This document shows, piece by piece, positions 31,948 to 54,724 of a stretch of DNA of 64,000 nucleotides (its first letter is position 1; every line of letters starts with the position of its first letter). This stretch comes from Alphaproteobacteria bacterium (GTDB taxonomy: Bacteria > Pseudomonadota > Alphaproteobacteria > UBA828), in assembly GCA_965221125.1 (NCBI GenBank), contig CBDCRW010000006.1:160001-224000 (forward strand), written 5' to 3'. Under the pieces are notes generated by a model that made no database searches, had not been told where the DNA came from, and saw nothing but the letters and a program-made list of their open reading frames with translations. The position numbers were made by a program, and so were the translations under genes.

Positions 31948-32744
31948 GGCCGCAGTTCCTCGAGCGCGTGCTGCAGGTGGTCGGCACTGACGGTCCTCGC
32001 CTCGTCGAGAGCGGCGGCGGAGAGCGCGTAGTGGGCGATGCGGTTGATCTGGCGCGGCAGGCCGCGCGCGCCCTGGAACAGGGCCTCGACGGCGGGCTCT
32101 TCGAACAGCGGCAGTTCGCATCCCGCGAGCCTGAGGCGGTGCTTGATGTAAGCGTCGACCTCGTCGCGGTCGAGACCGCTCAGGTGGTGGCGGACGACGA
32201 GGCGCTGGCTGAGGGATTCGTGCATGGCCATGGCCAGGCGGCGCCTGAGCTCGGTCAGACCGACGAGGACGAGGCACAGGCGCTGCTCTGCATCCATGGC
32301 GAAGTTGGTGAGCAGGCGCAGGTCCTCAAGGACGTCGTTGCGCAGATGATGGGCCTCGTCGATGACGAGGACCGGCAGCTGCTTGGCCTCGGTGACGAGG
32401 CGGGAGATCTCGTTTCGGATGGCCTGATAGGCCGAGGCGCGGGAGCGCTCGATGGGCAGGCCGATCTCCCACGCGATCGCCTTGTACATGTCGAGCACGT
32501 TGCCCGTGGTCAGCGAGACGTAGTGGACCCGGTAGAGGCCTGGATGAAGCTGCGCGGTCAGATGCCGGCACACGGTGGTCTTGCCGGAGCCCACCTCGCC
32601 GGTGAGCAGGCCGATGCCGCGCAGGTCGATGAGGTGGCCGAGCCTGGCCTCGGCCTCGCGGCGCGCGTTGGACTCGAACAGCTCGTCGGTCTCTGCCGGG
32701 GTCTCGAAGGGCAGGCGGGTGAAGGCGAAGTGGCGCAGGTACAT
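31944..32744 (-). CDS. ExeA/TniB/TnsC-like AAA+ ATPase (transposition helper)
   Basis: 'MYLRHFAF...PF', GEVGSGKT, 'VIDEAHHL', 'LVG', 'SLSQRL', 'GLPRQINR'. Confidence 0.85.
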   Translation of the reverse strand: MYLRHFAFTRLPFETPAETDELFESNARREAEARLGHLIDLRGIGLLTGEVGSGKTTVCRHLTAQLHPGLYRVHYVSLTTGNVLDMYKAIAWEIGLPIERSRASAYQAIRNEISRLVTEAKQLPVLVIDEAHHLRNDVLEDLRLLTNFAMDAEQRLCLVLVGLTELRRRLAMAMHESLSQRLVVRHHLSGLDRDEVDAYIKHRLRLAGCELPLFEEPAVEALFQGARGLPRQINRIAHYALSAAALDEARTVSADHLQHALEELRP

Positions 32745-34072
32745 CACTCGTCCTCCTTCTTGTCCTTGAGGTTGCGCATGGCCAGCGGCGAGGGCGGAGG
32801 CTCGGGCGCCGGATCTTCGGCCTCGATCTCCCTGGCCGGGTAGGTGCGCCTGACGGCGGTATTGGCGTAGGCGTCGAGAGGGCTGGCCTTGCCGGCCGGC
32901 TTGCCGTCATGGACCACGTCGAGAGGGCGCGAGGGCGGCGCGGCCGGGTCGTAGCGCAGGATGACGTTCTGACCCACCAGGAGGGCGTCGACCTCGTAGA
33001 CGCGGCCGTTCAGACTAACGGTGCGGTCCTTGTAGACACGGCGCCTGGCCTCGAAGAGGAACAGATCGTCGAGGTCCATGGTGGCGTCGGGATAGCGCAC
33101 GCCGGCCGAGGCCAGCGCCCACTGCTCAAGCGGGGTGCGCCCCTCGTCGAGGCCACGATGCGGGCTGTTGTGATACTCCCCCTCGATCCAGGCCCAGAGG
33201 CTGCGGTTGAGCGCCTCCAGGCTGTCGACGTCATCGCCGAGGTGGCGGAGCCAGCCGGCCCGGAGGGTGCGGAAGAAGCGCTCGATCTTACCCTTTCCCG
33301 CTGGCTGGAACGCCCTTGCGTGAATCAACGCAACGCCGAGCCTGGCGCAGACCAGGGAGAGATGACGGGAGCGGTAGGCGCTTCCGTTGTCGACGTACAA
33401 GCGGGCCGGGAGGCCGCGCCGGATCAGCGCGTCCTTGAACACCGGCAGGAACGCCGCAGTGTTCTCCGCCATGGCGAAGGCGGCGAACGGGATGACGCGG
33501 GTGGCGTCGTCGATGAAGGCGATCAGGTAGGTCTTGCGCCGGGTTCGGCCGTGCCGGACCTTGGGTCCGTGCATGACGTCGCTCATCCACATCTCGCCGG
33601 CATGCCGGAAGGCGAAGCGGCGGCGATCCGCCCCGTCGGGCGGCTTCTTGTCGAACAGGCCCTCGCGGCTGAAGAGGCGGTGCACGGTGGACGAGGCGAG
33701 CGGGTGGTCGATACCCTCCTCCTTGACCTTCTGGATGATGGCGCGAACCGACAATGCGTCGTTCTCGGTCTTCAGCGCGATGAGGCGCTCGGCGACCTCG
33801 GGCGGCAGCCGCCGGGGCTTCCCCCGGTCGGTGCGGGGCTTGGGGTAGAGCGCGTCGAAGCCGCCGTAGCGGTAGTCCTTGATCCAGCGCCGCATGGTCT
33901 CGGCGGCGACCCGGGTCCTGGTGGTTCCGGGGATCGTGTAGGTCTTCTCGGCTTTGGCGCGCATCATCGCGCCGGCACCCGGTGCACCCACGGGCAGATG
34001 CACCAGATCGGCGATGACGTCGTATCGGAAGAGCGCGATCTGTTGGCGAAGGTCGTCGTCTGAGCTGTTCAT
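32744..34072 (-). CDS. DDE transposase (Mu/TnsB-like, integrase core with Mu-transposase C-terminal domain)
   Basis: HTH N-terminus, 'WMSDVMHG', 'LIAFIDDATR', 'LYVDNGSAY', 'GKGKIERFFRT', 'VSLNGRVYEV...LRYDP'. Confidence 0.9.
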   Translation of the reverse strand: MNSSDDDLRQQIALFRYDVIADLVHLPVGAPGAGAMMRAKAEKTYTIPGTTRTRVAAETMRRWIKDYRYGGFDALYPKPRTDRGKPRRLPPEVAERLIALKTENDALSVRAIIQKVKEEGIDHPLASSTVHRLFSREGLFDKKPPDGADRRRFAFRHAGEMWMSDVMHGPKVRHGRTRRKTYLIAFIDDATRVIPFAAFAMAENTAAFLPVFKDALIRRGLPARLYVDNGSAYRSRHLSLVCARLGVALIHARAFQPAGKGKIERFFRTLRAGWLRHLGDDVDSLEALNRSLWAWIEGEYHNSPHRGLDEGRTPLEQWALASAGVRYPDATMDLDDLFLFEARRRVYKDRTVSLNGRVYEVDALLVGQNVILRYDPAAPPSRPLDVVHDGKPAGKASPLDAYANTAVRRTYPAREIEAEDPAPEPPPSPLAMRNLKDKKEDE

Positions 34073-34951: not shown

Positions 34952-36404
34952 GGTTGTGTCCCCAGACGTGGTGTAGGAGCTCCCGCTACCCCCGGTAGCT
35001 GTGGGTAACCGGCTTGGCGCCGCGACCGCCCTCGAGTCTGGTGGCGCCAAGCCGGTTATCCACAGCGGGGTGGCCATCGCGGTTCCGGTTTAGGGTTTGG
35101 GTGAATCCGAATCGACCCGAGCCTAAGGAGAACCACGATGACCGATGACAAGCTTACCCTGCGGACGCTGTTGGAGAAGAGCTCTGACGCCGATCTGCTG
35201 CGTGAGATGATCGCCTTCTCTGCGCAGCGCCTTATGGAGCTGGAAGTCGAGGGCCTGACCGGCGCCGAGCATGGCGCGCGGACGCCGGAGCGGATCAACC
35301 AGCGCAACGGCTACCGCGATCGGCCTTGGGAGACCCGGGCCGGCACGGTCGACCTGAAGATTCCGAAGCTCAGGAAGGGGAGCTACTTCCCCGGCTTCCT
35401 GGAGCCCCGACGGACGGCGGAGAAGGCGCTCACGGCGGTGATCCAGGAGGCCTACATCCAGGGGGTATCGACCCGCTCGGTCGACGAACTGGTTCAGGCC
35501 ATGGGCATGAGCGGGATATCGAAGAGCCAGGTCTCGCGCCTTTGCGGGGAGATAGACGACAAGATCCGCAGCTTCCTCGACCGCCCGCTCGAAGGCGACT
35601 GGCCCTATCTCTGGCTGGATGCGACTTACGTGAAGGTGCGCGAGGCCGGGCGCATCGTCCCGGTCGCGGTCACCGTGGCCGTCGCGGTCAACGACCAGGG
35701 CCGGCGCGAGATCCTCGGCATGGCGATCGGCGCCTCCGAGGCCGAGACCTTCTGGACCGAGTTCCTGCGCTCGCTGACCAGGCGCGGCCTGCGCGGCGTG
35801 CAGCTGGTGATCTCCGACGACCACAAGGGCCTGAAGGCCGCCACCACCCGGATCCTCGGCGCCACCTGGCAGAGATGCCGCGTCCACTTCATGCGCAACC
35901 TGCTGGCCCATGCCGGCAAGCAGGGCCGGCGCGTCGTCTCCGCCTTCGTCGCCACCGCCTTCGCCCAGGACGATGCCGAGGCCGCTGCCGCCCAGTGGCG
36001 CCTGATCGCCGACCAGCTCAGGCCCAAGGCCTCCAAGCTGGCGGCCCTCATGGACGAGGCCCAGCACGACGTCCTCGCCTACATGAGCTTCCCCAAGGAG
36101 CACCGGGTCAAGCTTCACTCGACCAACCCGCTCGAACGCGTCAACGGCGAGATCAAGCGACGCACCAACGTCGTCGGCATCTTCCCCAACGAGGACGCCA
36201 TCACCCGCCTCGTCGGCGCCGTGCTGCTCGAGCAGAACGACGAATGGACCGTCGGAAGGAGGTACATGACGCTGGAATCGATCGCTCCCCTGAGCGACAA
36301 TCCCACGATCAAGCTGTCCGCTGTGGCAGCCTGAATAACCCGGCCCTACCCGCCGGATGCCGCGTAAAGCGCGACGCTCTTACACCACTCCTCGGGACAC
36401 GATC
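34952..36404 (+). mobile_element. IS256-family insertion sequence
   Basis: Imperfect TIRs GGTTGTGTCCCCAGACGTGGTGTA / GATCGTGTCCCGAGGAGTGGTGTA (reverse complement); 8-bp TSD CTCGCCGA at 34944-34951 and 36405-36412. Confidence 0.92.
35138..36334 (+). CDS. IS256-family transposase
   Basis: 'RNGYRDR', '[11 protein letters not shown]', 'YLWLDATY', 'ISDDHKGL', '[11 protein letters not shown]', '[16 protein letters not shown]'. Confidence 0.95.
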
Positions 36405-36588
36405 CTCGCCGATCTCGCGCCCACCGCTCCACAGCTTCAACAGCAATGAGGATTCTGCTGAGGATCAAAAAAATGCCGCAGGCAGCGTCCTTCCCGCACT
36501 CGGCCACCATCCCGGGAAATCCACCAACCAATCAAAGTGAGAAAAAAACCCGTGCTTCTATCCGGCTAGACCGGAAAACAACACGCAG

Positions 36589-37042
36589 TCCGTGGAGGGC
36601 AGGGGCTTCCGACGTTTCAGCCCACCGGATCCTCTCGGACCTCTCGGCCTTGATCGGCCACGAGGATCCATCCCGGCACCGAATTCTCGCGGCGGGAGAT
36701 CTGAACATGATCTACGGTGCGACCGGGCGAACCCTGGCACTGCCTGAGCGCGACCGCTCCGTCTGGAACCGCTTCGAGGCGCTCGGCCTGGAGTTTCTCG
36801 GGCCTCAAGCGCCGAACGGCCGACAGTCCCTGGTGCCACCGCCCGATGTGCCGCCGGACACGCAAAACGTTCCGACCTTCTATCCCGTCGGCAAGTCTGC
36901 GGCCGATGCCGCGGTCCAGCTCGACTACGCCTTCGCGTCGCGCGGCTTCCATGAAATGGTGAAGGTGCGCGCCCTCAACAATGTTGATGAGTGGGGCTCA
37001 AGCGACCATTGCCGGCTGCTGATCGAGATTGAGACAGAATGA
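36589..37042 (+). pseudogene. EEP family gene, 3' part
   Basis: 'ILAAGDLN', 'QLDYAF', 'SSDHC' catalytic motifs. Confidence 0.85.
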
Positions 37043-37138: not shown

Positions 37139-37380
37139 TTGATACTCAATGACGTCGGAATGAAGGATGTGAGACTGCATGACCTTCGACATGCGATTGT
37201 TAGTAACGCCGTCCGGCGGGGCATCCCGCTGGCTGTCGTCTCCCGCCTGCTCGGCCACAGGCGGCCGGGCATGACGCTGCGCCATGCACACGTCGGAGCC
37301 AGCGAGACTGAGGCGGCGGCGGAGCGTATTGGTGGGGCCGTCGCGCGGGCACTGCGTAGTGATGCAGCCGCAAATTCCCA
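37139..37380 (+). pseudogene. Tyrosine recombinase/integrase C-terminal remnant
   Basis: 'VRLHDLRH...VSRLLGH....MTLRHAH'; expected catalytic Tyr (TLRYAH) is His; no N-terminal part. Confidence 0.75.
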
Positions 37381-37521
37381 ATCGGTCCTGAAACGTCTCC
37401 ACGCGCCTCACGAGTATCTTGACCCACAGCAGTTCCCCCTTCAGGCTCCGAGCTCGAATCGGCTGGCAGAGGTCCACAAGCCGCGCTGGGGCGTGGCGTA
37501 TAGCATCAGAAGCACCGGATC

Positions 37522-39018
37522 ATGAGCACCGGGGTGATCAGGCAGAAGATAAACCGTCTTTCGGGTGGTGCGCGCCCGCGTGTGCTAGACCTTTTCGCCG
37601 GCTGCGGCGGATTGTCACTTGGCTTCCTGGCCGCCGGCTGTGAAATCGCGGCTGCTGTGGAGTCGGATCCCGATGCTGCCGGATCTCACGGAACCAATTT
37701 TCATCCCGGCGATGACCGACATGCTCAGCCGCGTGATATCACCAGTGTAACGCCGTCAGTCCTTGCTGAAGAGCTGGCTCTGAGCGATCCAGCACACGCA
37801 GTCGACATCATTGTTGGTGGCCCGCCCTGTCAGGCATTTGCCCGTGTAGGTCGGTCAAAGCTCCGGGAAGTTGCTGATCACCCAGAGGCTTTTCGGCATG
37901 ATCCACGGTCCCGATTGTATATTCGTTACTTGGACTATGTTGAAGCATGTGCCCCTCTCGCAGTTGTCCTCGAGAATGTACCAGACATGCTTAATTTTGC
38001 TGGCCGTAACATTGCCCATGAAGTCTGTGAGGTTCTCGCGGAGCGAAATTATTCCTGCGCTTATACCTTGCTCAACGCTGCCTATTATGGTGTGCCGCAG
38101 ATGCGGGAACGCGCATTTCTGATCGCTGTCACCAAAGAGCTATTAGCCAGCGTCACGTTCCCCGCGCCTACGCACTGGATTAAATTGCCTTCCGGCTATG
38201 AGGGATCCCGCGCTGTGGCCCTCAAGCTTCTCGCACATAGCGACACGCATGGTCCGGACGAATTCTGGAAGCCATTTCCTGATTCCAGGGCCGACTTGCC
38301 GACCGCCGTTACAGCAAAGGAGGCATTGCAGGACTTGCCGGAGATTGATGCGCGGGCGGAGCTCGCGAGCGGCAGGCTGAAGAGAGGTGCCCGTCGTTTC
38401 GATAAACCCATTCCGTTTCCAATTCCAAACATCCTCACCGATTATGCACGTATCATGCGTAATTGGCCAGGATTCGAGGCGCGTGACGAGATTTGCGACC
38501 ACGTTATTCGGTACTTACCCCGTGATTACCCACTCTTCGCCCGTCTTGATCCAGGTGACCAGTATCCTGAAGCGCATCGCCATGCGGAGAAAATGTTTGA
38601 CGAAATACTAACTGAACGTCGCAAACAGAAACAGACGCTGCGCAAAGGATCGAAAGCATGGCGTGAGCTTCGCGGCAGTATCGTGCCACCTTATGATAAC
38701 TGCAAGTTTCCTAACAAATGGCGGAAGATGGAATCAGATCAACCGGCACGAACCCTACTGGCCCATCTGGGTAAAGACAGCTACAGCCACATTCACTACG
38801 ACAGTAAACAGGCCCGCACCATATCGGTGCGCGAAGCCGCTCGACTCCAATCCTTTCCCGATGGCTTTGTTTTCTGTGGCACAATGAATCCCGCATTCAG
38901 ACAGATTGGCAATGCCGTGCCGCCACTCTTGGCCAAAGCAATTGGAGAGACTCTGCTTTCCCAGATCACATCTGCCATCGACGTACCGACTTCAGCAACG
39001 GCTGTTGCCGGGGGGTGA
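37522..39018 (+). CDS. dcm: DNA (cytosine-5)-methyltransferase
   Basis: Motif I 'DLFAGCGG', IV 'GGPPCQAF', VI 'ENV', VIII 'PQMRER', IX-X 'ISVREAARLQSFPD...QIGNAVPP'. Confidence 0.93.
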   Translation: MSTGVIRQKINRLSGGARPRVLDLFAGCGGLSLGFLAAGCEIAAAVESDPDAAGSHGTNFHPGDDRHAQPRDITSVTPSVLAEELALSDPAHAVDIIVGGPPCQAFARVGRSKLREVADHPEAFRHDPRSRLYIRYLDYVEACAPLAVVLENVPDMLNFAGRNIAHEVCEVLAERNYSCAYTLLNAAYYGVPQMRERAFLIAVTKELLASVTFPAPTHWIKLPSGYEGSRAVALKLLAHSDTHGPDEFWKPFPDSRADLPTAVTAKEALQDLPEIDARAELASGRLKRGARRFDKPIPFPIPNILTDYARIMRNWPGFEARDEICDHVIRYLPRDYPLFARLDPGDQYPEAHRHAEKMFDEILTERRKQKQTLRKGSKAWRELRGSIVPPYDNCKFPNKWRKMESDQPARTLLAHLGKDSYSHIHYDSKQARTISVREAARLQSFPDGFVFCGTMNPAFRQIGNAVPPLLAKAIGETLLSQITSAIDVPTSATAVAGG

Positions 39019-39021
39019 GAT

Positions 39022-40962
39022 GTGTCAAACGAATCGCCGGAGGTCATAATTGTCCGCTCCCTTGCTGAGTCTGACCTTGGTCTATTCGCAGCTCACCGTA
39101 AGGCCGCCCGGAGCAAACAACGAGCAATCAATATCAACTCGTCCATTGCCCGCAAGTTTCTGAGTCCCGCCGTCTACAAGCTTGGCAAAACGAAACTCAA
39201 CTGCATCTGTGTTTTCGGAGACACGGTAGTCCGAGAGGCCCGACGATTCGGGAAGACGCATAAGAACTGGCGTCTTGGTGGCAAGAAGATTGAAGGAGAG
39301 ATCTTTGCCACACTCGACAGCAAGGATTTTGCCTTAATCCGGTCTGTTGCCGGCAATGACGGGTCTTATCCGGTAACGATCACGTTTGTATCACGTCACA
39401 CGAATAGGGTCGTTCACGCCGGTCTTGCCGCTGTGGTCGAACGAAAACTGACTGACAGTATGACGATATTTGAAGAAGGTGTTGACGGATTTGGCTCCAT
39501 CGCCGAACACTGTCCTTGTCTGAGTTGGGACGAAGCACCTGCAGGGCCGCGTTCACCAGCGGGCCGGTCTCGGCCGATACCTCCGATGCCAACGGAGGAC
39601 AGCGAGGCCCGCCCTCGCAAGGCCAGAACGATCAGGGACAAGGTGCGTAGTCCTCACATCCTTGAAAGGATGCTGCGGGTGGCTGGCGATCTGTCGGCAC
39701 CTGCTCAACTGCGCTTTATGGAAACGGTGGAACAGCTTGCAAGCCAGCTACGACACGTGCTGATTGAGACCGGAGGAATCCAACGCATAGAGAAGAATCA
39801 CCGAAATCTTTGGGGCAGTGTCGCTGGTCGGCCGATCGGTTTCGTGGACGGTGGTCTTGCTAATCTTTCCATGCTTGGATCAGCGCCGATCGCGGCTCGA
39901 GTGGGCGGCTATACCGTTATACCCGGCGTGCATGGGGAGGAGCGGGAGAGATTTGTAGTCCTGAAACACCTTATCGATGAGCTCTACGCTCATGACCAGG
40001 AGGCTGTTTACGAGGACACCTTTCCCGATATCGGCGCGCTTCGGGATGCTGCTCGTATTTCGATCGAGGCGGCTGGCGCGGTCCGGTTGCTTGCCGACCA
40101 GAGCGATCTGTCGTGGGTGTTCCTCCACGGTGCACTTGTAAACCCTGTGTCCCGCTATACAGATGTCATGCGGGATCGTAGGGTGCGGCACCGTTTCCCT
40201 AACTTTTCGAAGTCAGCGCTAACAGAGCTCTTGCCGACGGGGGAGCCACCAAGGCGTGGCCGAGATTGTAATTTCATCAGTGTCCATCTCAGGCAGCTCG
40301 AATTTCTTTCAGATGCAGAGGCAGTTGTCTGCGGTGTGATAGAGCGAGAGAGCACAACCACCTCAGTTTGTCGGGCTGTGCTTGACAGTCTTGAGGACGA
40401 CCTGATCCGCGATTTCTTGCCCTTACCGCCGGCTGAGTGGAAGCGCTGGTTCCGCACTGCCGTTGACCCGTCAGATGATGATGAGTTCGAAGGTCAGCGG
40501 ATCACGGACTCGTTGCTGTTCCGGTGCGTGCTTGAACCTGGCGAGGCGCTTCTGCCCGTGATGGTTGATCGTAACGATATGCGGCGGGCGCCAGATGCGT
40601 GGCGGGACCTTATTGTTCGTTATCCTAAGCCACATGTTTCCTATATTCAGGTGACAGAATGGAGCGCGCCTGTGAGACTGGAACTGTTTGAAAAGGACCT
40701 GGGACGGTTCCGGAACACAGCCGGTCTAGTCTTGCATTGCGCGTTACTGCTTCCCCGCTACGCCTTTCCTGTAGGTCTCGATATTGTGGACAAATTCGCT
40801 CGGATTCCGAACTGGATGAGTCGACCGATAAACACTCACACTGCTGTGCAAGCTATGAAGCAAGCCCTTGACCGGGGAGATACGCGGCTGTTTGACGCCT
40901 TGCGCCACACGCTATGCGGATCCGGTCGAGAATTCTTGCTTCGTCCTGGCATATATCGATAG
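39022..40962 (+). CDS. NurA-like nuclease fused to an N-terminal ~165-aa putative DNA-recognition domain
   Basis: C-terminal part: 'IGFVDGG', 'R...E', 'VFLHGAL' (usually D-G), 'RYAFPVGLDIVDKFA' resembling the NurA 'GYP..L..A' end; sits directly before HerA; Pro-rich linker separates the N-domain. Confidence 0.65.
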   Translation: MSNESPEVIIVRSLAESDLGLFAAHRKAARSKQRAININSSIARKFLSPAVYKLGKTKLNCICVFGDTVVREARRFGKTHKNWRLGGKKIEGEIFATLDSKDFALIRSVAGNDGSYPVTITFVSRHTNRVVHAGLAAVVERKLTDSMTIFEEGVDGFGSIAEHCPCLSWDEAPAGPRSPAGRSRPIPPMPTEDSEARPRKARTIRDKVRSPHILERMLRVAGDLSAPAQLRFMETVEQLASQLRHVLIETGGIQRIEKNHRNLWGSVAGRPIGFVDGGLANLSMLGSAPIAARVGGYTVIPGVHGEERERFVVLKHLIDELYAHDQEAVYEDTFPDIGALRDAARISIEAAGAVRLLADQSDLSWVFLHGALVNPVSRYTDVMRDRRVRHRFPNFSKSALTELLPTGEPPRRGRDCNFISVHLRQLEFLSDAEAVVCGVIERESTTTSVCRAVLDSLEDDLIRDFLPLPPAEWKRWFRTAVDPSDDDEFEGQRITDSLLFRCVLEPGEALLPVMVDRNDMRRAPDAWRDLIVRYPKPHVSYIQVTEWSAPVRLELFEKDLGRFRNTAGLVLHCALLLPRYAFPVGLDIVDKFARIPNWMSRPINTHTAVQAMKQALDRGDTRLFDALRHTLCGSGREFLLRPGIYR

Positions 40963-40985
40963 AGAAAAACACACAGGCGGACGTT

Positions 40986-42749
40986 GTGAACGAGCTTGAA
41001 CAAAACGGATGGCGAAAAATCGGCACCGTAGTCGGCAATGCGGGTACTGCAGAGTTCACGTTTATTCTAAAGCATTTTGAGGCACGAGTGGGTGACATTG
41101 TAGCCCTCGGTATGCAGATACCGGACAGCGCATATCAAGGGCGAACACGAATCTATGTCTGGACCAGAATCACAGACATCAGACGCTTCAACCCGTTCTT
41201 TCCATATGAGGCTGCACAAGAAATTGCGGGAGAGGGTATATCCCTCGAAGATACAGTCCTATCTGATACGCGTGACCAGCTTGAGGCCGTGGCCCTGATT
41301 CTTGGAACAACACCAGAAACTGAGCTTTCCCACCTCTCACCGCTCACCTATCCGGTCAAGCCAGCCTCGTCGGTCTATCACCCACCCGCCGAGGCTATCC
41401 GCCGGCTCTTGATCGGCGGCCGGGAGGATGAACGCAAGACGCTGATTGGTTCTCTCATCGCGCGCAGCGATGTCGAGGTAACACTGTCCGCGCCTCGCCT
41501 TGTTGCCCGTCATCTTGCCATCCTGGCCATGACAGGAGGCGGAAAGACCGTTGCTGCACGGCGCATCATTCGCGAGCTTATCACTCATCAATACCCATTG
41601 CTGATACTTGATCCACACGGTGACTACGTGGGACTCGCGAACAGCAGTGAGCTCTTCGAGAGGGAAGCTCCAGGGTCGACGATCAAGCTCTTCTATCCGG
41701 ATTTGCTCATGCAGCAGTCGGGCGAGGCTCTGATTGAAAAGGTCATTGGTCAGATGACCGACGGCCTTAGCGAACCCCAGTCGGATTATCTCCGCTCCGT
41801 CTTCAACGCCCAAGCTGCAAAGGATGGCGAGCCAGCGATCGACTATATAGAGCGGCTACTGAAGCGTACCGATAGCGACATCGCGAACGCACGCGATAAG
41901 CGCCAAGTACCCACCATGTACGCTGTGAGGCGTTCGCTCCGCATCGTTCACGGCAGGCTCGACAGCATGCGCCGCACGAGTGAGATGATGCGCCGCAGCT
42001 CTCGGCTGCGTCATTTGCCTTTTGAAGCGTTGCCAAATCCCTTTAGTCAGCCCGAGGACATTGTCCAACCTGGGCAAGTCTCTATCCTGTATCTGGGCGG
42101 CTACGACCACATCACGCAATGTTCAATTGCCGCCATTACGTTGGAAACGTTGTTTGAGTTCAGAGCCAATCTGACGGGGCGCATCGCCCCGTTCCTGACT
42201 GTCGTCGAAGAAGCACACAATTTCATTCCGTCGGCCCGCGAGGGCACACAGGACGCCGTTTCGCTCCCTGTCATGCGTCGCGTAATCACGGAAGGCAGGA
42301 AATTTGGCACAGGACTGATGCTGATTTCACAGCGGCCGAGCCGGCTGGACGAAACCATCGTCTCGCAATGCAATTCCTTCCTAATCCTTCGACTTGTCAA
42401 CCCCCGAGATCAAAATTTCGTTCGTTCCATTATGGAAAATCTCACCGAATCCGACGCGCGAATGATTCCGGGCTTTGGACCGGGGCAAGGAATTGTCAGC
42501 GGTCAGGTTGTGCGCTTTCCCCTCCCAGTGCGCGTAAAGATGGACGAGGATCTCTTGGCGTCCGAGATCGGCGATGAGGATTTCTTCGAACAGGCTGCTG
42601 CATGGCAGCCTGATGCGCACGCACCTGCCCGCAAGGCCATCGGCAACTCGATTTCCGCTGTGAACCGAAGTCGCCGAAAAGCGGGTTCGGCATCTACCTC
42701 CAAAGCTAAGACGCGGCGACGACGATCACCTAAGACGCAGCAAGAATAA
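40986..42749 (+). CDS. HerA/FtsK-family ATPase (HAS barrel plus DUF87)
   Basis: N-terminal barrel 'KIGTVVG', 'RHLAILAMTGGGKT', 'ILDPHGDY', 'VVEEAHNF', 'EGRKFG.GL.LISQRPS.LD'. Confidence 0.9.
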   Translation: MNELEQNGWRKIGTVVGNAGTAEFTFILKHFEARVGDIVALGMQIPDSAYQGRTRIYVWTRITDIRRFNPFFPYEAAQEIAGEGISLEDTVLSDTRDQLEAVALILGTTPETELSHLSPLTYPVKPASSVYHPPAEAIRRLLIGGREDERKTLIGSLIARSDVEVTLSAPRLVARHLAILAMTGGGKTVAARRIIRELITHQYPLLILDPHGDYVGLANSSELFEREAPGSTIKLFYPDLLMQQSGEALIEKVIGQMTDGLSEPQSDYLRSVFNAQAAKDGEPAIDYIERLLKRTDSDIANARDKRQVPTMYAVRRSLRIVHGRLDSMRRTSEMMRRSSRLRHLPFEALPNPFSQPEDIVQPGQVSILYLGGYDHITQCSIAAITLETLFEFRANLTGRIAPFLTVVEEAHNFIPSAREGTQDAVSLPVMRRVITEGRKFGTGLMLISQRPSRLDETIVSQCNSFLILRLVNPRDQNFVRSIMENLTESDARMIPGFGPGQGIVSGQVVRFPLPVRVKMDEDLLASEIGDEDFFEQAAAWQPDAHAPARKAIGNSISAVNRSRRKAGSASTSKAKTRRRRSPKTQQE

Positions 42750-43210
42750 TGGTGGACGTACTGACACCGGAGCAGCGTCGCCTAAATATGAGTCGTGTCC
42801 GGGGGCGCGATACGAAACCCGAGATGCTACTACGACGGGCTTTGCATGCTCGTGGATTGCGTTTTCGTTTGCATCGCCGCGACCTGCCGGGCAGACCCGA
42901 CCTTGTGTTCTCTCGTTACCGCGCTTGTCTGCTGGTTCACGGGTGCTTTTGGCACGGTCACGACTGTGCCCTTTTTCAGTGGCCAGCAACGCGTCGAGAA
43001 TTTTGGATCCAAAAGATTGCAGCAAACCGCCAGCGTGATCAGGAAACACTCAATAGGTTGATGGAATCGGGATGGCGTGTTTTGGTCGTTTGGGAATGCG
43101 CGCTGAGAGGGACTGGGAGAAAGGATTTTCCGGCAGTCATAGACGAGTGTGTGAGTTTTGTTACCGGTCTCAACTTAGAAGCCGAAATTGCGGGGTACAA
43201 ACGAATCTAG
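42749..43210 (+). CDS. vsr: Very-short-patch repair endonuclease
   Basis: 'D.LTPEQR..NMSRVR.RDTKPE', 'LPGRPD', 'VHGCFWHGH', 'GWRVLVVWEC'. Confidence 0.95.
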   Translation: MVDVLTPEQRRLNMSRVRGRDTKPEMLLRRALHARGLRFRLHRRDLPGRPDLVFSRYRACLLVHGCFWHGHDCALFQWPATRREFWIQKIAANRQRDQETLNRLMESGWRVLVVWECALRGTGRKDFPAVIDECVSFVTGLNLEAEIAGYKRI

Positions 43211-43798: not shown

Positions 43799-45028
43799 GT
43801 GAACACCTCGCCGCTGCTGATTACCGCACATGACGATGAGCTGGTCGGGGCGTCCAACCCCGCGGACGCGATGGGCGTTCTCGCGATATGGTCCATCAGA
43901 GGCCGAGACCTTGTCCCGCATCTCACAGAGCAGACAACCAACGTTCGGGGCTTTCAGATCCTCGTGGAGGCCTTCCGCCTATGGGAGCTCTACGAGCCCG
44001 CACACCCAGAGCACGCCGGCCGGCTGGACGATTTCTTTCTGCTGATTGAGCAAGCCTTCGCCCGCGTCGTTGGTTGGCGTGACGGGGACTGGTACTTGCC
44101 CGGTGCCCATCGGGTGCGAGCGCGATCCTCGGAAACGCCTCGGATATCACTGGAGGACTTGGGCTGGCACCTGCTTGGTGGCCAGAAGGCGAACGGACTG
44201 TGGGGACTATATCGGGGGGCGTCACGACGGGCAGGGCTGCTAACAGACGATATGACGCGGCTCTCCGATGAGACGATGAACGAGGCCAAGAGAAACGCAG
44301 GAGTCGTGGGTCGGGCCCAAACGCGACTGTTCAGGGCAGTGCGGGATGCGATGGATGGCCGCACGGTCGAGCTTCCGACGCACAGGAACAACGCGCTACC
44401 CAACGCGCTTTACGAAACGTTCTGGGATGTGCCGCTCGCCGATCATTTGCATGTGCGGCTGATTGAAGGGCATGACCTAAACAGACAGCTCGCCGAGCGT
44501 CTGCTCGATATTGAAGAACTTGCACACCGAAATTTTCTCAGCGATGCGGCCCGAGATCTGCCCGAACATCGAGCCAAGATCAAGGATGCGGTTCGCTGCG
44601 AAGACTTTCTCGCCGTTGTGGAGGCGGTCTTCCGCTGGCTTTGCGCCAGAAAGGGCAAGACGGTCGAAGCTGCGGTGGAGGACCTTCCTGTCGATTTGGA
44701 TACGCTTTCCGCGGCGCGCGACTCGTTCGAGCACTCCGGCTTCTACGGAAGAGGAACCGCGCGAGAACGTCAACGTCGGTTCCGTGAGGAACTCGACCCG
44801 TCGAGCAAGGTCAAGTTAGCGCGCTCGGTGCTCCTGCTCCACGAGATGGTGAGCGAGGAGAGGAAGCGGGCTCCTAGGGTGTGGGAGGAACAAGGCGTGC
44901 TGTTGAGCGACGTGGAAGTGGACCCTCCATCCAAACGCGAGCTTCGGGTGGGAGCGGCTTGGTGCAACGATTACTACCTCGCACCGCTGCAAAACATCGT
45001 TAAGCAGCTTGCGGAGGTGCGCGAGTGA
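43799..45028 (+). CDS. Hypothetical protein, first gene of a three-gene defence-like operon
   Basis: 409-aa ORF GTGA-coupled to the PLD gene; N-terminal 'DAMGVLAIWS..GR.LVP.LT..T..VRGF' motif. Confidence 0.7.
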   Translation: MNTSPLLITAHDDELVGASNPADAMGVLAIWSIRGRDLVPHLTEQTTNVRGFQILVEAFRLWELYEPAHPEHAGRLDDFFLLIEQAFARVVGWRDGDWYLPGAHRVRARSSETPRISLEDLGWHLLGGQKANGLWGLYRGASRRAGLLTDDMTRLSDETMNEAKRNAGVVGRAQTRLFRAVRDAMDGRTVELPTHRNNALPNALYETFWDVPLADHLHVRLIEGHDLNRQLAERLLDIEELAHRNFLSDAARDLPEHRAKIKDAVRCEDFLAVVEAVFRWLCARKGKTVEAAVEDLPVDLDTLSAARDSFEHSGFYGRGTARERQRRFREELDPSSKVKLARSVLLLHEMVSEERKRAPRVWEEQGVLLSDVEVDPPSKRELRVGAAWCNDYYLAPLQNIVKQLAEVRE

Positions 45029-46923
45029 ACGACCTGAACACGGTGCGGACGCGAATCGAGCGGGCATCGCAGTACTTCCGCGAGATGCACGGCGTCGTGC
45101 TGACCACGTTCAACTTGAACGGGGAGTTCCTCGAGGACCACGCATTACCCGCCGTTCTTGGCGTCGATGCGAGCACCTCCGCAGGTCGCCGAGCAGAGCT
45201 TCACCAGCGCCTCGGAACGACGCCCTGCACGGTCTTCTACGATCCGGCGACCCAGCCCAGGATATCGGGCCGATACCGATATGTCGCGCGGCCAATGCCG
45301 ATCCGCGGCCGCTTCTTTCACCCAAAGCTCGTCGTCATCGCCGGCCGATCGGAGAACCGCACGACCTGGGTGTATCTGGCGGTCTCGTCGGCCAATCTTA
45401 CTCTTTCCGGGTGGGGACGGAATGCTGAATCATTCGGCGAGACATGGATTCACACACGTGGCCAACAGGCATGGACGGCTCTTGATGCCCTGTTTGACTG
45501 GCTAAGTTCTCACAGCTCTTTGGGAGAGAAGCAAGGCAGCACCGACGCCGTGGCCCGTGTCCGCGCCGCTTTGGCGCGTATGCCCAACCGAAGACGCTTC
45601 AGCAACGACGATTCGGAGCCTTGGTCGGGCACGCTTCACGCCGACCTGTATGTGTCGGTTGTGCACACTTCGGGGTTTGCCGAGTTTCTCCGGGGCAAGC
45701 GCGCCCGGGGTCCCTCCGAGCTGTGGGCGTACAGCCCATACTGGAGCGACGTGACCGAGCAGGTAGCGAAATTTGATGCGCAAGAGACCGTGCTCGTTCC
45801 GGCGCTTCGCACCGACGGGGGCGCGCTCGGGCTCTCACGGGAGCAGGTGGAGGAACTCAGCGACGGAATCAAGATTTTCCGCAACGAGCGAGACGTTGGA
45901 GACCGGTTCTGGCACATGAAGGCGTACTGGGCTCGGCAAGGGGAGAGGATTCGCACTGCCGTCGGCAGCTGCAATTTCACACACGCCGGACTCTCCGGCA
46001 GTGATGGGAACGTCGAGGCAATGCTCGTGCTGGACGGCGAGCCTGAATCGCTTCCTGAAGGCGCGGAAATCGAGGACGACGACTTCGCTGAAGAAACAGA
46101 GGCTGAGGAGGGCAAGCCCGAGGCGGCTCCTGTGGCCATCGTGGTGGCGTGGGATTGGAGAGCCAGCGCTTGGCGATGGTGGCTGGAAGCGGGCCCGCGC
46201 CAGCGCAGCTTCATGCTGTGCGTTCCCGGTCTCGCTTCATTTCGGATCAAGTCGGGTGTCGGGAAAAAGCCAAGCATGCCACCCAAGCCAAGCGCAAACT
46301 TCACCGTGTTCTACCGCGCCGACCAAGATCCAGCCGAATGGCAAGGTCAGGTCGTCGAACTGAACCTTGACTATAGCTCGAGGACTTACGGTCGGCGGCT
46401 CACCGCAAACGAGATACTCGAGAGTTGGCGAGGCAGGGCGCCCACATGGGATCCAGGGGGAGGGGGAGGCGGAGGGAATGGCGATCCGAGTGACGAGGAC
46501 GACGACTTGGACGGCGACACCCCCGCCGCATTCAACGCCGTAAATCTGTTCGATTTCTACAGATCGATGAGCGCGCTGCGCAGTAAGGTACGGGCGCTGG
46601 ACGAGGATCAGGACATCCAACGTGGATATCTCGTTGGCCGACCGGACAGCGTCATGGCCCTTGCCCACCTTGTTGACCGAGACGATGAAGCGCCAATCGT
46701 GCGATTTCTAGTCCTCCGTGAACTGCACGCCGTCGCCTCGACTTGGGCAAACATTCTTGATGCGGAGCTTGTGGAACGGATCGGACAAATGACGAGAACG
46801 GCCCGAGATCGCACTTACGCCCGACTCCGGCAAGAACTGGATGGGAATAAGAAGAAGGCCGACCGCATGCTCGATTGGTTCGAAAACGAGCTCTCTAGAC
46901 TCGACGGCGAGATGGACGCGTGA
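45025..46923 (+). CDS. Phospholipase D-superfamily (HKD) nuclease-like protein
   Basis: Two HxK motifs: 'FHPKL...VSSANLT..GW..N.E' and 'WHMKAY...VGSCNFT..G'. Confidence 0.8.
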   Translation: MNDLNTVRTRIERASQYFREMHGVVLTTFNLNGEFLEDHALPAVLGVDASTSAGRRAELHQRLGTTPCTVFYDPATQPRISGRYRYVARPMPIRGRFFHPKLVVIAGRSENRTTWVYLAVSSANLTLSGWGRNAESFGETWIHTRGQQAWTALDALFDWLSSHSSLGEKQGSTDAVARVRAALARMPNRRRFSNDDSEPWSGTLHADLYVSVVHTSGFAEFLRGKRARGPSELWAYSPYWSDVTEQVAKFDAQETVLVPALRTDGGALGLSREQVEELSDGIKIFRNERDVGDRFWHMKAYWARQGERIRTAVGSCNFTHAGLSGSDGNVEAMLVLDGEPESLPEGAEIEDDDFAEETEAEEGKPEAAPVAIVVAWDWRASAWRWWLEAGPRQRSFMLCVPGLASFRIKSGVGKKPSMPPKPSANFTVFYRADQDPAEWQGQVVELNLDYSSRTYGRRLTANEILESWRGRAPTWDPGGGGGGGNGDPSDEDDDLDGDTPAAFNAVNLFDFYRSMSALRSKVRALDEDQDIQRGYLVGRPDSVMALAHLVDRDDEAPIVRFLVLRELHAVASTWANILDAELVERIGQMTRTARDRTYARLRQELDGNKKKADRMLDWFENELSRLDGEMDA

Positions 46924-49900
46924 GGCCTTTCACCCGACCAGTGCGGCCCCAGGACGTGGGAGACCTCATCGACCTCACAGTGGTGGGCGACAACGAATCG
47001 CAGTCGATGGCCGATTTGCAGCTTGAGGGCGTCGCGGCCATTTACAACATTCTCTGCCAGCACAATTTTGCCTACCTGGCCGACGAGGTGGGCATGGGCA
47101 AGACGTACCAAGCGCTCGGGCTGGTTGCGCTCTTGTGGAATGAGATGCCAGACGCACGCGTGCTGTTCATCAGCCCTCGCCAGAACCTTCAGGTGAAGTG
47201 GCACGGAGACTACATCCGCTTCTTCGCCTCGAACTATCGCCGAGAGCAGGGACTAGGGGATGACCGGGCGGCGTCGGTGCTGTTCGGCGAGCCGCTTCAT
47301 CGGCCGGTGTTGTTCCATAACCTGAGAAGCTGGACGTCGACGATTGGCCTATCCGAGCGCATCGCGCCTTTTGTCCGACACACCAGCTTTACGCGGCCGG
47401 TCTACCTGACATCCAAAGACCTCGGCGACATGGATGACCTTTGGGAAAAGACCAGCAGACGGCTCCGCAGTTGCGGCCTGTTCGGGGTCGAGCCGCCCCG
47501 CGGTCTGACGGAGGACAACGCTCCGCTTCTACTCAATCTCGAATTCGCTGGGGCCGTAAACGCAAGACTCACCCGGGAGGTCGGCGAACGGCCTTATTTC
47601 GATCTCGTCATCGTAGACGAGGCTCAATGTCTGCGAAATCCCTGCAACCAGACAAACCGCGTGCTGTTCGCCATGCTAAAGGGTCATGTAAGGAAGTGGC
47701 TCTTCATGAGCGCGACGCCCGCCCACGGCGGACCTGAGGATCTCCCGAAAATCCTCAACCACTATCCGAACGGCGGCGAGGTTCTCGATCCAGATCTCGT
47801 TCACGATCTGCCGGCCATGCAAAAGGCCTTACAAGCTTTCCTTGTACGCCGACAGCGAAGCTATCGGGCAGCAGGGCCCAACAAGATGGTGCGAAAGGGC
47901 GAATATCGCAAGCATGACTCCAAGGACTGGGGCGTTCGAGACGATGAGATGAGCCCGCTGGCGACGCTAGCGACGGGGCTCGTCCAGAAGGGATTGGTGA
48001 ATGTTCTCCGCGGGAGGAGCAATCGGTACCGCATTGGATTTCTCTCCTCCTTCGAGAGCCTGCAGACCTCGCTAAATCGCACGCTGCCCGCATCCGTCTC
48101 GGACAGCGATGCGCAAGATGAGCAGGTGGCCGGGGACTGGCACCGCGACCAGGTAGACACCTTCACCGAGCCCGAGGCGCCCGACACCGACTTCATCGAG
48201 AAGCTGGCGTCCTCTTTCGAGGATCGCTTCGCCATGCCGATGCCGCATCCCAAGGTCGACTCCGTGGTGGACCGTGTCGCCCCGCTCGCATTTGGCGCTG
48301 ATGATGAGAAAGGTGGAGCAAAGTTCCTCATTTTCACGCGACGGGTCAGCACTGTGGATGCGTTGTGCAGTCGGCTGATGTACCGATACCACCGGAGCAT
48401 AGAGCAGCGGATATGGAGGTGCTGGGACACCGCGCTCGACTGGAGCGGCAAGAGCGTCCGTGTCGAGGATTCTGACGGCTCCGAGGATCCCGAAGCGTTC
48501 GATGCCGACCCGGGTGAAAGCCCCTTTCGTCGCGCGATGTCGAACAAGGGGTGGCTCTTTCGCTATCGCCAGACGTTTCGCGCGAGCGGCAGGAACGCAC
48601 TGTTCTTCGAGGATGGCTGGTTGCGGCGTCTGTGTTACGCCGGCGGCGTTGATCCAAGTGAAGCCGCAGACGAATTCCCGGAAGAGCTGTGGGCGGAGAG
48701 TTGGACACACGCATCTCGATCGGCCGGGCCACGTCAGAACCAGTATCGTGCGGAGAGGGCTCGCTATCTCGCCGTACAGGGGATCCGCCGGGCTCCTCAT
48801 GTGTTCGGCCTCGATGTCGAGAGTGCAGCTCCATGGCGGACCGCCTACGAGGCGGCGCTCCACGAGCACCTCGATCGAGCGGAGCCTGCTGACGACCCGC
48901 ATTACGCGCCAGAGCTATTCACACAGCGGACGCTGTGGACGGAATGGGATGACCGCATTTCCGACGAGCATTTGAGCCTTCCCGTCGCTATGCCCGAGGG
49001 TGTTGGGGCTGAGTTCAATCGCGACAAGCTGTGCGATGAGTTGTGTCGTCGGCAAGTCGTGCGCACGGTGCTGGGGCAGACATTTCGGTTGACGGACGTG
49101 CTGCTCGATTTGTACTTCGCCAACGAACAGGCAGAGCGGGACGCAGACGTGTTCCCGCGTCGCTTTCTGGACTGGCTACTATCGGCCGATCCTGGCGCCC
49201 GCCAAGTCCAAGCCGATTGCGTCCAGTGGATACAGCACATTCGCCTCATCGTGGATAGCTGTCTGGACGGGGCCGGTCAAAGTTGGCGTGTACTGGCTCG
49301 CGAAGAAAGCTGGCCCCAGCTCTACAATCCTTTGGCGGTTATCGGGGTGGTCGGCGGATCGGGCGCCCATCGCGTCGCGACGAGGCAGTTCCGCACGCCG
49401 TCACTTCCACGCGTGATCGTCTGCACCGATACGTTGAAGGAGGGTGTGGACCTGCACCTCTTTTGCGATCGAGTTCTTCACTACGGCGTCGCTTGGACCT
49501 CCGGGGACCTTGAGCAGCGCGTCGGCCGCGTGGACCGTTTCTTTTCGCAGATCGAGCGACGCCTTCGCTCCGAGGGCGCCCCTCCGGATGTGGTCCTTGG
49601 TGTTGGATACCCGCATGTGGTCGCTTCGCTCGAACGAGCGCAGATCGACCGCGTGATCGAGCGCCAGAAGCGGGCCGAGCAGCTGATGGATTCCCCGCTC
49701 GCCGGCACTCGGCGCGAAAGCAGGGAACTGGTCGTCGGCGCCGGAGCGCCGCGCGCGGCTGAGAGCGCGCTGGAGCCCTACGCGCGCAAACGGAATCAAT
49801 ACCCGCGAAATGGGCGTCAGGTCGTGGTCGTGTCGAAGCGGGACGCCCGAAAAAGCGTGGAGCACTATTGCTCCTGGTACGACGAGCTCACGAACGCGGT

Positions 49901-53002: not shown

Positions 53003-53088
53003 CGGTGCAACCCGCCCCGTCTACCGCGTCTTCCTGCCGCCCGCTAGGTTGGAAGGCGCGGAACCGCGGGGCCGGAAGGAGAAGCCTG

Positions 53089-54078: not shown

Positions 54079-54093
54079 CAAGGAGGGCTCACC

Positions 54094-54636
54094 ATAGCCT
54101 GGCAAGGATCCCTGGACGGCCTTTGCGGGCCCTACGCGATCGTCAACGCCTATCATCTGTGCGGTATCGACGAGGACTGGCTGGGCAAGGACATCTTCAA
54201 GATCACGTGTTCGGCGATCAACGACTGGCCAAAGGCACTGTGGAAAGGAACCACGTTCGAGCAGATGAGAACGATGCTCAAGGTCTTCCAGAAAGCGCTG
54301 AAGAAGGCTTACAGGGAAGCGGACTGTGAGTATCCGATCGAAATCGAGTATCCCTTCCGCGGGAACCCGCCGCGCACCGGCAAGAAATTCCGGAAGCGGC
54401 TTCACGAGATATTTTCCCGCGACGAGGTGATCTGCGGAATCGTCGGGATGGAAAAGCCTGCCGCTCACTGGTTCTCCTTCGTCAAGCACAAGGAGGCGCT
54501 GATCGTCTTCGACTCGGCTCCTCCCGGCGACGGTGAAATGCGCCGCATCGGGTTGGACGATCTCCATGTTCGGCGAGGTAGGAAGAAAGAACTGGTTCTT
54601 AACCCCAGAGAGCTGATCGTATTCCGGGAGAAATGA
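54094..54636 (+). CDS. Papain-fold (C39-like) cysteine peptidase-like protein with apparent ATA start
   Basis: Frame open from 54079; AAGGAGG at 54080-54086 then ATA at 54094; 'QGSLDGLCGPYAIVNA' (Cys), 'AHW' (His), 'VFDS' (Asp). Confidence 0.65.
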   Translation: MAWQGSLDGLCGPYAIVNAYHLCGIDEDWLGKDIFKITCSAINDWPKALWKGTTFEQMRTMLKVFQKALKKAYREADCEYPIEIEYPFRGNPPRTGKKFRKRLHEIFSRDEVICGIVGMEKPAAHWFSFVKHKEALIVFDSAPPGDGEMRRIGLDDLHVRRGRKKELVLNPRELIVFREK

Positions 54637-54724
54637 TCATGCCGGCGCTGGCTTGTGCATCGATCGATCGTCTGGCAACTGGAGGCGCCATCGCCGTGAT
54701 GCTGCCGGCACCGGGACGTGTGAC

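Follow-up and report, generated by a model that had tools for sequence, protein, structure and literature searches.

What is the role of a cassette in which a C5-methyltransferase (MTase) gene is followed by genes for a NurA-like nuclease, a HerA-family ATPase and a Vsr endonuclease? Such a cassette lies at positions 37522-43210 of the window, the whole stretch of 64,000 nucleotides analysed here (contig CBDCRW010000006.1, positions 160,001 to 224,000, from an alphaproteobacterium of the UBA828 lineage). Its second gene, called gene 2 below, joins the NurA-like part to an N-terminal domain resembling the B3 DNA-binding domains of restriction enzymes. We consider it fairly probable that the cassette is a horizontally mobile, ATP-dependent restriction-modification (R-M) system. 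Its genes and the parts of gene 2 are as follows (aa, amino acids; 5mC, 5-methylcytosine).

37522-39018, plus strand: C5-MTase, 498 aa; predicted modification (self-protection) arm
39022-40962, plus strand: gene 2 (B3-NurA), 646 aa
39022-39546, plus strand: N-terminal B3-like pseudobarrel of gene 2, aa 1-175, structured at about 7-161; proposed site reader
39547-39633, plus strand: variable Pro-rich linker of gene 2, about aa 176-204
39634-40962, plus strand: C-terminal NurA-like nuclease of RNase H fold in gene 2, about aa 205-646; proposed restriction nuclease
40914-42749, plus strand: hexameric ATPase/translocase of the HerA family, its longest open reading frame (ORF) encoding 611 aa; proposed motor
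42749-43210, plus strand: Vsr very-short-patch repair endonuclease, 153 aa; predicted to offset mutagenic 5mC deamination

Domains of the four proteins

An earlier note, made from the sequence of the window, had described four tightly packed, co-oriented genes of lower GC (guanine plus cytosine) content, and all four ORFs are indeed present on the plus strand at 37522-43210. The GC content of the cassette is 0.52-0.58 versus 0.63-0.73 upstream. The MTase and gene 2 ORFs are separated by 3 nucleotides, the HerA stop and the Vsr start share 1 nucleotide, and the longest HerA ORF overlaps gene 2 by 49 nucleotides. Because the alignments of HerA homologues start at residues 9-36, the true HerA start is probably the in-frame GTG at 40986 (587 aa), 24 nucleotides past the gene 2 stop, and not 40914. 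Among the gene boundaries of the earlier note, all four ORFs are found where it had placed them, and the HerA start is the one that probably has to be moved. The features that it had read in gene 2 (the strings VRSLAESDLGLF, SKQRAININ and KNWRL, the Pro-rich linker and an FVDGG motif) are all found in the translation. It had also remarked on the lack of a classical restriction endonuclease, and no such family matches any of the four proteins in Pfam, PADLOC or NCBIfam. A scan for promoters and terminators around the cassette gave counts near chance (6 versus 2.9 and 6 versus 6.7).

The MTase matches PF00145 (E = 1.4e-55), TIGR00675 (9.2e-48) and the PADLOC model MTase_II (2.5e-74), and all the conserved motifs examined are present in its translation, including FAGCGG, GGPPCQ, ENV, QMRER and GNAVPP. 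By these family matches and motifs, the protein qualifies as the putative cognate methyltransferase of an R-M system. HerA matches DUF87 (PF01935; E = 3.2e-25, 89.9 bits versus a cutoff of 23.2) as well as the HerA models of PADLOC (1e-47) and NCBIfam (9.3e-47), and its translation contains both a Walker A (TGGGKT) and a Walker B (VVEEAH) motif. The best match of HerA by sequence in the PDB is the NurA-partnered HerA of T. kodakarensis (9x1l_A, 8.1e-38); the HerAs of SIR2-HerA and DUF4297-HerA match it at 4.7e-28 to 1.1e-16, and similarity to TdpA is weak (3.8e-8). Vsr matches PF03852 (1.8e-32), TIGR00632 (1.3e-46) and the PADLOC Vsr model (5.2e-40).

Gene 2 is the least familiar of the four. 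It has no match in Pfam (E up to 10), NCBIfam r20 or PADLOC v2.0.0, and a phmmer search of the PDB gave nothing usable. The earlier note had allowed that the system might already be listed as a predicted one; the models of PADLOC v2.0.0 and NCBIfam r20 do not cover gene 2. Gene 2 homologues form 294 clusters (90% identity) at E <= 0.001, with 61-100% identity among the 120 matches listed, and some of them bear the NCBI name "DNA double-strand break repair nuclease NurA".

The N-domain (aa 1-175) was modelled with AlphaFold2 from a 24-sequence alignment, with a predicted local distance difference test score (pLDDT) of 91.1 and a predicted template modelling score (pTM) of 0.88, and the domain models of gene 2 were compared with known folds using VIA, which gives Z scores, and Foldseek. 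The best VIA match is the C-terminal domain of BfiI (3zi5; Z 12.2, 142 of 175 residues aligned, root-mean-square deviation (rmsd) 3.1), followed by BfiI 2c1l (Z 11.7), EcoRII-N 3hqf (Z 11.2), LlaJI.R1-N (Z 8.9) and the UbaLAI B3 domain (Z 8.2), while plant B3 domains reach Z 6.3-8.1 and the NgoAVII B3 domain Z 4.9. The top 13 VIA matches are all B3 domains, 9 of them chains of restriction enzymes, and the first unrelated entry has Z 3.6. The top Foldseek matches are also B3-like domains of restriction enzymes (E = 3.8e-5 to 5.4e-5). By its predicted fold the N-domain is a B3-like DNA-binding pseudobarrel of the EcoRII-N/BfiI-C type, as the earlier note had guessed from the letters alone. Eight residues (R12, Q33, R34, R74, K81, N82, W83 and R84) are invariant among the 24 sequences, and five of them (R12, R34, R74, K81 and R84) are basic, in a domain whose predicted role is sequence-specific DNA binding. 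The linker that follows is poorly conserved and gap-rich (columns ~170-225 of a 24-sequence alignment), and homologues that do not have the B3 domain begin just past it, at gene 2 residues ~187-204.

The C-domain (aa 195-646) was modelled in the same way from a 69-sequence alignment spanning 23-86% identity (pLDDT 81.5, pTM 0.82). The NurA/RNase H fold, on which the earlier note had made its proposal depend, is recovered in this model: the best VIA match is the NurA of S. solfataricus (2ygk; Z 16.1, 274 residues aligned, rmsd 4.4), which is also the top Foldseek match (E = 1.2e-6). VIA rank 2 is chain 8wet_G of the TdpAB complex (Z 12.4, 265 aligned), followed by the D. radiodurans chain 7f6d_G (Z 11.3), the T. 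kodakarensis chain 9x1l_G (Z 10.9) and 1zup from Thermotoga (Z 10.4). All of ranks 1-5 are NurA-type entries, and Argonaute PIWI and EndoV entries have Z <= 9.3. By its predicted fold and its partnership with HerA, the C-domain is a NurA. Six residues (D276, E349, E441, R442, D496 and D587) do not vary among the 69 sequences, conservation of H369 and D590 is 90% or more, and the motifs FxDGG, E, LHGxLV, GVVER, GLDIVDK and RDWLFRP are found family-wide. The model puts D276, E349, H369 and D587 on predicted strand 1, on the long helix after it, at the end of a strand further on and in the C-terminal motif GLDIVDK. That these motifs are kept through the family argues for an active enzyme, presumably one competent as a nuclease. 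A two-copy complex prediction of the NurA-like core (score 0.00, mark 0.42, without controls) speaks neither for nor against a toroidal homodimer like that of NurA.

Related loci with other readers and effectors

A census of related loci, based on one genome per species and mapped by tblastn and ORF clustering, comprises 76 loci: 24 with a full-length B3-NurA gene (L001-L024), one fragment of the same type (L047), 31 B3-less loci linked to an MTase and 20 loci with neither MTase nor Vsr. The full-length proteins share 37-83% identity with gene 2. An orthologous MTase (49-80% identity) lies directly upstream on the same strand in all 24, with reading frames that abut or overlap, as is usual for a writer and its cognate reader. 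HerA is downstream in 23 of the 24, the exception (L007) being at a contig edge, although the HerA of L003 is only a fragment (a 123-aa match); Vsr is found in 19, and the contigs of L007, L014 and L021 end too early. Across the census HerA follows the NurA-like gene in 74 of the 76 loci, and both exceptions are contig ends. Thus, the four genes co-occur well outside the window, as the earlier note had asked of its proposal, and since the gene order recurs in full-length loci of other genomes (n = 24), the arrangement is not due to chance. Among the 24 full-length loci we have not seen B3-NurA without an MTase, which matches the expectation for a toxic restriction arm. These loci are from at least seven phyla and include Alpha- and Betaproteobacteria, Magnetococcales, Desulfovibrio/Thermodesulfobacteriota, Acidobacteriota, Chloroflexota, Bacteroidota and Verrucomicrobiota.

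Some copies in the census are decaying: the NurA-like gene of L022 is split by a frameshift, and the NurA-like, HerA and MTase genes of L051-L053 are fragmented. Five related cassettes are adjoined by members of one gene cluster, c16 (L014:4105-5030, L015:10150-11310, L023:9793-10959, L043:3255-4430 and L054:12400-13281), and in L023 the c16 gene is located between HerA and Vsr. The L015 member, the only one scanned, resembles AspBHI, a 5mC-dependent Type IV enzyme (RE_AspBHI_N 1.8e-64, Mrr_cat 8.3e-12). A 5mC-directed nuclease near a 5mC writer is odd, and presumably the two specificities do not overlap.

The 31 B3-less loci with an MTase align to gene 2 only at residues ~190-646 (28-42% identity), again with HerA next; similarity to the C5-MTase is found in 28 of them and Vsr in 26. 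In 25 of these loci (L025-L046, L049, L051 and L066) the NurA-like gene encodes the core only (408-456 aa), and 23 of the 25 have an extra gene of ~685 aa beside HerA (the resulting five-gene variant of C5-MTase, Vsr, NurA-like core, HerA and AIPR is seen, e.g., at L027:2083-9357). The extra gene of L027 encodes an AIPR protein (PF10592, 6.3e-94) that is MzaE-like (NF041935, 1.3e-124 but below the cutoff; PADLOC MzaE, 2.3e-95). In four other loci (L048, L050, L054 and L056) the NurA-like protein starts with an intact N-extension of another kind, 170-204 aa long. The extensions of L054, L048 and L056 show no similarity to the B3 profile (hhalign probability < 1%), N-extensions of this third type have no Pfam match, and the Atlas leads for L054 are sub-threshold (0.89); this extension, too, might serve in target sensing. 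AIPR is found neither in the 24 B3-bearing loci nor in the four loci with the other N-extension. Since an N-domain and AIPR are mutually exclusive, these results suggest that they are alternatives for one job, most simply target sensing.

The 20 loci without MTase or Vsr are more distant from gene 2 (23-31% identity), and 8 of them are actinobacterial-type pairs in other contexts. A DUF6884 gene is found upstream in 12 of the 20, and a TGT-like gene downstream in 10. The resulting DUF6884/NurA/HerA/TGT-like cluster (L057:5015-10106, together with L055, L058-L065, L067 and L076) is found in cyanobacteria, Chloroflexota, Planctomycetota and Acidobacteriota, among others. Similarity of the TGT-like gene to DpdA is weak (5.5e-8 and 1.1e-9), and DUF6884 matches PDC-M57A (9.1e-9). 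The cluster may combine a modification module of 7-deazaguanine type with a restriction arm made up of NurA-HerA. Judged by gene content, NurA-HerA thus appears to be a portable effector, accompanied by B3 in some loci, by AIPR in others and elsewhere by another modification gene.

The B3 domain is portable as well. A profile search with it picked out 237 representatives from 1.84 billion proteins; ten of the family were examined by Pfam, seven of them with family matches, and nine of the ten by PADLOC. B3 is joined to a NOV_C nuclease-like domain in P0186 and P0199, to an MzaB-like GHKL ATPase in P0188 and P0195 (PADLOC, 1.9e-50 and 2.8e-50), to two GHKL ATPase domains in P0167 (best PADLOC match REase_II) and in P0168, which has the same Pfam architecture, and to a superfamily 2 (SF2) ResIII helicase in P0208, whose best PADLOC match is a model of Type IV methyl-directed restriction endonucleases (1.7e-20). 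PADLOC also gave a TmtA match among these proteins, and P0207, P0124 and P0125 have no Pfam match.

Five rhizobial plasmids match gene 2 at residues 7-176/196 only. On R. etli CFN42 p42f (L078, 111841-120545) the order is a CopG-like gene, a C5-MTase, a stand-alone B3 protein of 193 aa and Vsr, and the opposite strand encodes MzaB (2.6e-108), MzaC (7.2e-168) and MzaD (2.5e-22). The MTase of p42f is 64% identical to that of the window and its B3 protein is 49% identical to the N-domain of gene 2. A 169-aa protein after Vsr matches models of methyl-directed Type II restriction endonucleases (5.7e-50). Hence, by gene content, a single backbone of writer, reader and Vsr (MTase-B3-Vsr) is used with either MzaBCD or NurA-HerA. 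The stand-alone B3 protein is annotated as hypothetical and matches no PADLOC model, and might therefore be a part of Mza that has gone unrecognised. The available text of the survey literature contains no published mechanism for Mza.

Mobility and genomic neighbourhood

The cassette is present as a single copy in its genome and is absent from all 30 relatives compared, 18 of which belong to the same genus. One IMG/VR contig (L081) bears the whole cassette, and another (L080) bears the MTase and B3-NurA up to the contig end. It is evident that the cassette is accessory and horizontally mobile. No tRNA gene is found within the 64-kb window. The genes on either side are as follows.

24835-29646: TrwC relaxase with helicase, upstream of the cassette
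30907-32277, minus strand: AAA_25/MarR protein, upstream
32744-34072, minus strand: Mu-like rve transposase, upstream
35138-36334: IS256/Mutator-family transposase, upstream
36446-37042, plus strand: ORF of 198 aa that weakly matches the C-terminal end of the endonuclease/exonuclease/phosphatase family (PF03372), below threshold (18.8 versus 24.5 bits)
37139-37525: C-terminal remnant of a phage integrase, 128 aa, abutting the MTase start
43799-50645, plus strand: PDC-M27-like candidate system of three genes, directly downstream
50906-53002: double AAA ATPase, downstream
52510-54078: WYL/WCX regulator, downstream
54653-57394: PD-(D/E)XK protein, downstream, forming an AddAB-like pair with the next
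57379-60798: UvrD-helicase/PD-(D/E)XK protein, downstream, the other member of the AddAB-like pair
61350-62306: Ser/Thr protein kinase, downstream

The ORF at 36446-37042 is probably a gene remnant between an insertion sequence (IS) element and the integrase fragment. Downstream, the PADLOC matches of the three PDC-M27-like genes are M27A (1.3e-11), M27B (1.2e-28, with a PLD-like domain) and M27C (2.7e-90, a 1241-aa helicase of SNF2/DEAD type). We regard these genes as a separate candidate defence system. A link between them and the cassette was considered and rejected, as they are absent from related NurA-HerA loci and only L071 has an M27C-like gene. The gene content of 50906-62306 looks like that of a defence island.

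Proposed mechanism, alternatives and known systems

If the cassette is an R-M system, the C5-MTase would mark the host copies of one specific sequence, and the B3 domain would bind unmethylated sites on incoming DNA, leaving methylated host sites unbound. Domains of this type recognise the target sites of BfiI, EcoRII, UbaLAI, LlaJI and CglI/NgoAVII, and the nuclease would work with the adjacent HerA as it does in the HerA-NurA pairs of archaea and bacteria. Bound B3 would form a complex with NurA-HerA and tether or activate it at the site, by way of the flexible linker to NurA. After a first cut, HerA would feed DNA by ATP-driven translocation to the NurA active sites, resulting in processive degradation and, at the level of the cell, in an anti-phage or anti-plasmid phenotype. 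Vsr would mend the T:G mismatches that arise from 5mC deamination and so lower the cost of carrying the methylase.

Several observations weigh against this proposal. Canonical HerA-NurA loads on DNA ends, whereas the proposed start is an internal unmethylated site. The B3-less loci outnumber the B3-bearing ones (31 versus 24 of 55 NurA-like/HerA loci linked to an MTase); B3 is then not essential to the family, and discrimination may reside elsewhere, e.g., in AIPR. Vsr is lacking in L003 and L004 though their contigs run on. The HerA of the cassette stays under the cutoffs of the NCBIfam equivalogs for double-strand-break repair HerA and anti-phage HerA (159.8 versus 970 bits for NF040819 and 113.6 versus 850 bits for NF042944), and we place it, by sequence, in a distinct HerA subfamily. 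The Pfam NurA model PF09376 does not pick up gene 2 (E up to 10, also in a scan of the whole genome), and a profile of the 69 NurA-like cores finds no NurA in the PDB, where its best match is a ribosomal protein (E = 0.032). The NurA assignment therefore comes from the predicted fold and from transitive sequence matches. Distant members of the family do pass the Pfam model (cutoff 21): L057 with 37.2 bits, L054 with 21.5 and L069 with 21.1; in the protein atlas cluster that holds gene 2, 11% of members carry PF09376. Lastly, the catalytic metal-binding residues of NurA are Asp, Glu, Asp and His, and the third position appears to be His in the gene 2 family, which has LHGxLV where canonical NurA has the motif DGS.

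Part of this evidence can be read differently. The cassette might be a methylation-marked defence system like Mza, BREX or DISARM, in which B3 does no more than anchor the protein to DNA or exert allosteric or auto-inhibitory control, self is told from non-self by another route and NurA-HerA acts afterwards. EcoRII-N is indeed an auto-inhibitory effector domain for EcoRII-C. Moreover, B3 is missing from 31 of the 55 MTase-linked loci with AIPR in its place in 23 of the 25 core-only ones, and the MTase-B3-Vsr backbone also accompanies MzaBCD in R. etli. However, AIPR never occurs together with B3 (0 of 24) or with the other N-extension (0 of 4), and the solved restriction-enzyme B3 domains among the fold matches are DNA-recognition or effector-binding domains, four of the entries with cognate DNA. 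We consider a methylation-marked system of this kind unlikely. The matches of P0208 to a Type IV methyl-directed model, the methyl-directed endonuclease-like gene after Vsr in R. etli and the AspBHI-like neighbours at five loci might instead indicate a methyl-directed, Type IV-like nuclease, with B3 reading foreign methylation and the MTase having a different specificity or role. Type IV enzymes, however, need no linked MTase, whereas here the MTase is immediately upstream in 24 of 24 loci with frames that abut or overlap, and the linkage is kept even when the effector changes; such a nuclease seems to us highly improbable.

The NCBI product name of the homologues implies double-strand-break repair, and together with a Vsr adjacent in 19 of the 24 loci and the activity of NurA as a 5'-3' exonuclease it could suggest a DNA repair cassette. 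NurA-HerA would then resect 5'-3' past a Vsr nick or process double-strand breaks, and the link to the MTase would limit the damage from 5mC deamination. This is difficult to reconcile with a cassette of low GC content that is accessory (0 of 30 relatives) and lies in a mobile defence island beside a PDC-M27-like system, or with a nuclease that bears a sequence reader of the restriction-enzyme type. In addition, NurA-HerA of relatives is accompanied in 23 loci by AIPR, of an abortive-infection family, and in others by a TGT/DpdA-like gene without Vsr; L003 and L004 lack Vsr; and Pfam finds neither mre11 nor rad50 in the cassette. In the portion of the text available, a 2026 study of the T. kodakarensis HerA-NurA suggests a defence role in archaea and favours defence over resection (PMC12977600), and a 2026 review, without detail in the section concerned, asserts a defence role for bacterial NurA-HerA (PMC13748450). 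In view of its accessory nature, mobile defence island, B3 reader and AIPR- or TGT-linked relatives, we reject repair as the function of the cassette and regard it as very unlikely. We give equally little credence, or slightly less, to a decaying or purely selfish remnant, i.e., an addiction module without a present defence function in the host. An integrase fragment and IS elements do flank the cassette, and some relatives are degraded (L022, L003 and L051-L053). Nevertheless, all four ORFs in the window are intact with their catalytic motifs kept, and identity of 50-83% over their full extent is maintained across phyla, a sign of purifying selection.

The R-M reading can also be compared with systems already described. 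The closest are CglI/NgoAVII, TdpABC and Mza. In CglI/NgoAVII, as far as the available text goes, a nuclease fused to a B3-like domain works with a separately encoded NTP-hydrolysing motor; CglI is described there as a B3-nuclease paired with a separate ATPase (PMC5737866). The cassette differs in having a NurA/RNase H fold and a hexameric motor of FtsK-HerA type in place of a PLD nuclease and an SF2 ATPase with Z1, and neither PLD, ResIII nor Z1 is matched by the four cassette proteins in Pfam or PADLOC, which leaves only the B3 module in common and sets them outside that class. CglI/NgoAVII is likewise paired with a methyltransferase. EcoRII, BfiI, UbaLAI and LlaJI share the B3-like fold (VIA Z 8.2-12.2), and a C5-MTase with Vsr is also known from the EcoRII/Dcm context; their catalytic domains, however, are PD-(D/E)XK, PLD or McrBC-like (for BfiI and LlaJI according to PDB titles), and none of them is known to use NurA-HerA.

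Among systems with a related effector, TdpAB (PDB 8wet) is similar in that a NurA-like/HerA-like pair forms the restriction arm of a self/non-self system based on DNA modification; tdpABC is presented, in the available part of the source, as a phosphorothioate-based R-M system (PMC12914056). Chain G of 8wet is probably TdpB, judging from the chain lettering of other HerA-NurA entries. Unlike TdpABC, the cassette would use a 5mC mark set by a C5-MTase and not a phosphorothioate set by TdpC, and its operon includes a B3 reader and Vsr. The modification gene is a C5-MTase and the similarity of HerA to TdpA is weak; we do not file the cassette as Tdp. Canonical HerA-NurA of archaea, Deinococcus and Thermus shares the NurA fold, the nurA-then-herA order and the closest, NurA-partnered HerA, but has no N-terminal B3 domain and no linked MTase and Vsr, while the cassette has no mre11 or rad50. 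In SIR2-HerA and DUF4297-HerA a HerA hexamer is also coupled to a defence effector. There the cassette differs in its effector, a reader-bearing NurA nuclease, and in its linked MTase, and SIR2-HerA and DUF4297-HerA systems are not known to include a methyltransferase; neither SIR2 nor DUF4297 is matched among the HerA neighbours in Pfam or PADLOC.

Mza, reportedly first described by Gao et al. 2020, shares with the cassette the backbone of orthologous C5-MTase, B3 module and Vsr, which in R. etli p42f stands beside MzaB/C/D. Its effector differs, being a set of MutL-like ATPase, Z1 and PD-(D/E)XK proteins and not NurA-HerA. None of the seven window proteins scanned with PADLOC matches an Mza model; it is in related loci alone that Mza genes turn up. 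No title or abstract opening found in the literature describes an MTase/B3-NurA/HerA/Vsr cassette, with subscription journals mostly outside the coverage.

Taken together, the cassette most likely represents an undescribed ATP-driven R-M architecture with a NurA-HerA arm addressed by a B3 domain. If so, the architecture would be new in that the target reader is fused to a NurA driven by a ring translocase, and not to a site-bound endonuclease or an enzyme with an SF2 motor. It belongs to a common family for which PADLOC v2.0.0 and NCBIfam r20 have no model, and the cassette may fill this gap in the tools. The MTase-reader-Vsr backbone with two unrelated effector sets is direct evidence of mix-and-match evolution and offers a lead on Mza.

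A broader proposal, to which we assign somewhat less than an even chance, is that NurA-HerA serves generally as a restriction effector of plug-in type, coupled independently to 5mC (in the cassette and its relatives with AIPR), to phosphorothioate (in TdpABC) and possibly to 7-deazaguanine (in the DUF6884/NurA/HerA/TGT-like clusters), and interchangeable with the Mza effectors on the MTase-B3-Vsr backbone. In that case the B3-NurA fusion would be a sequence-addressable, processive DNA shredder, and a nuclease of this kind might become a tool. The repair-nuclease name given by NCBI to the gene 2 family is probably a mislabel, and the same may be true of hundreds of database entries called "DNA double-strand break repair nuclease NurA". 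For bacterial NurA-HerA the evidence points to immunity over double-strand-break repair, and if the plug-in proposal is true, most bacterial NurA-HerA pairs would be immune and not repair machines.

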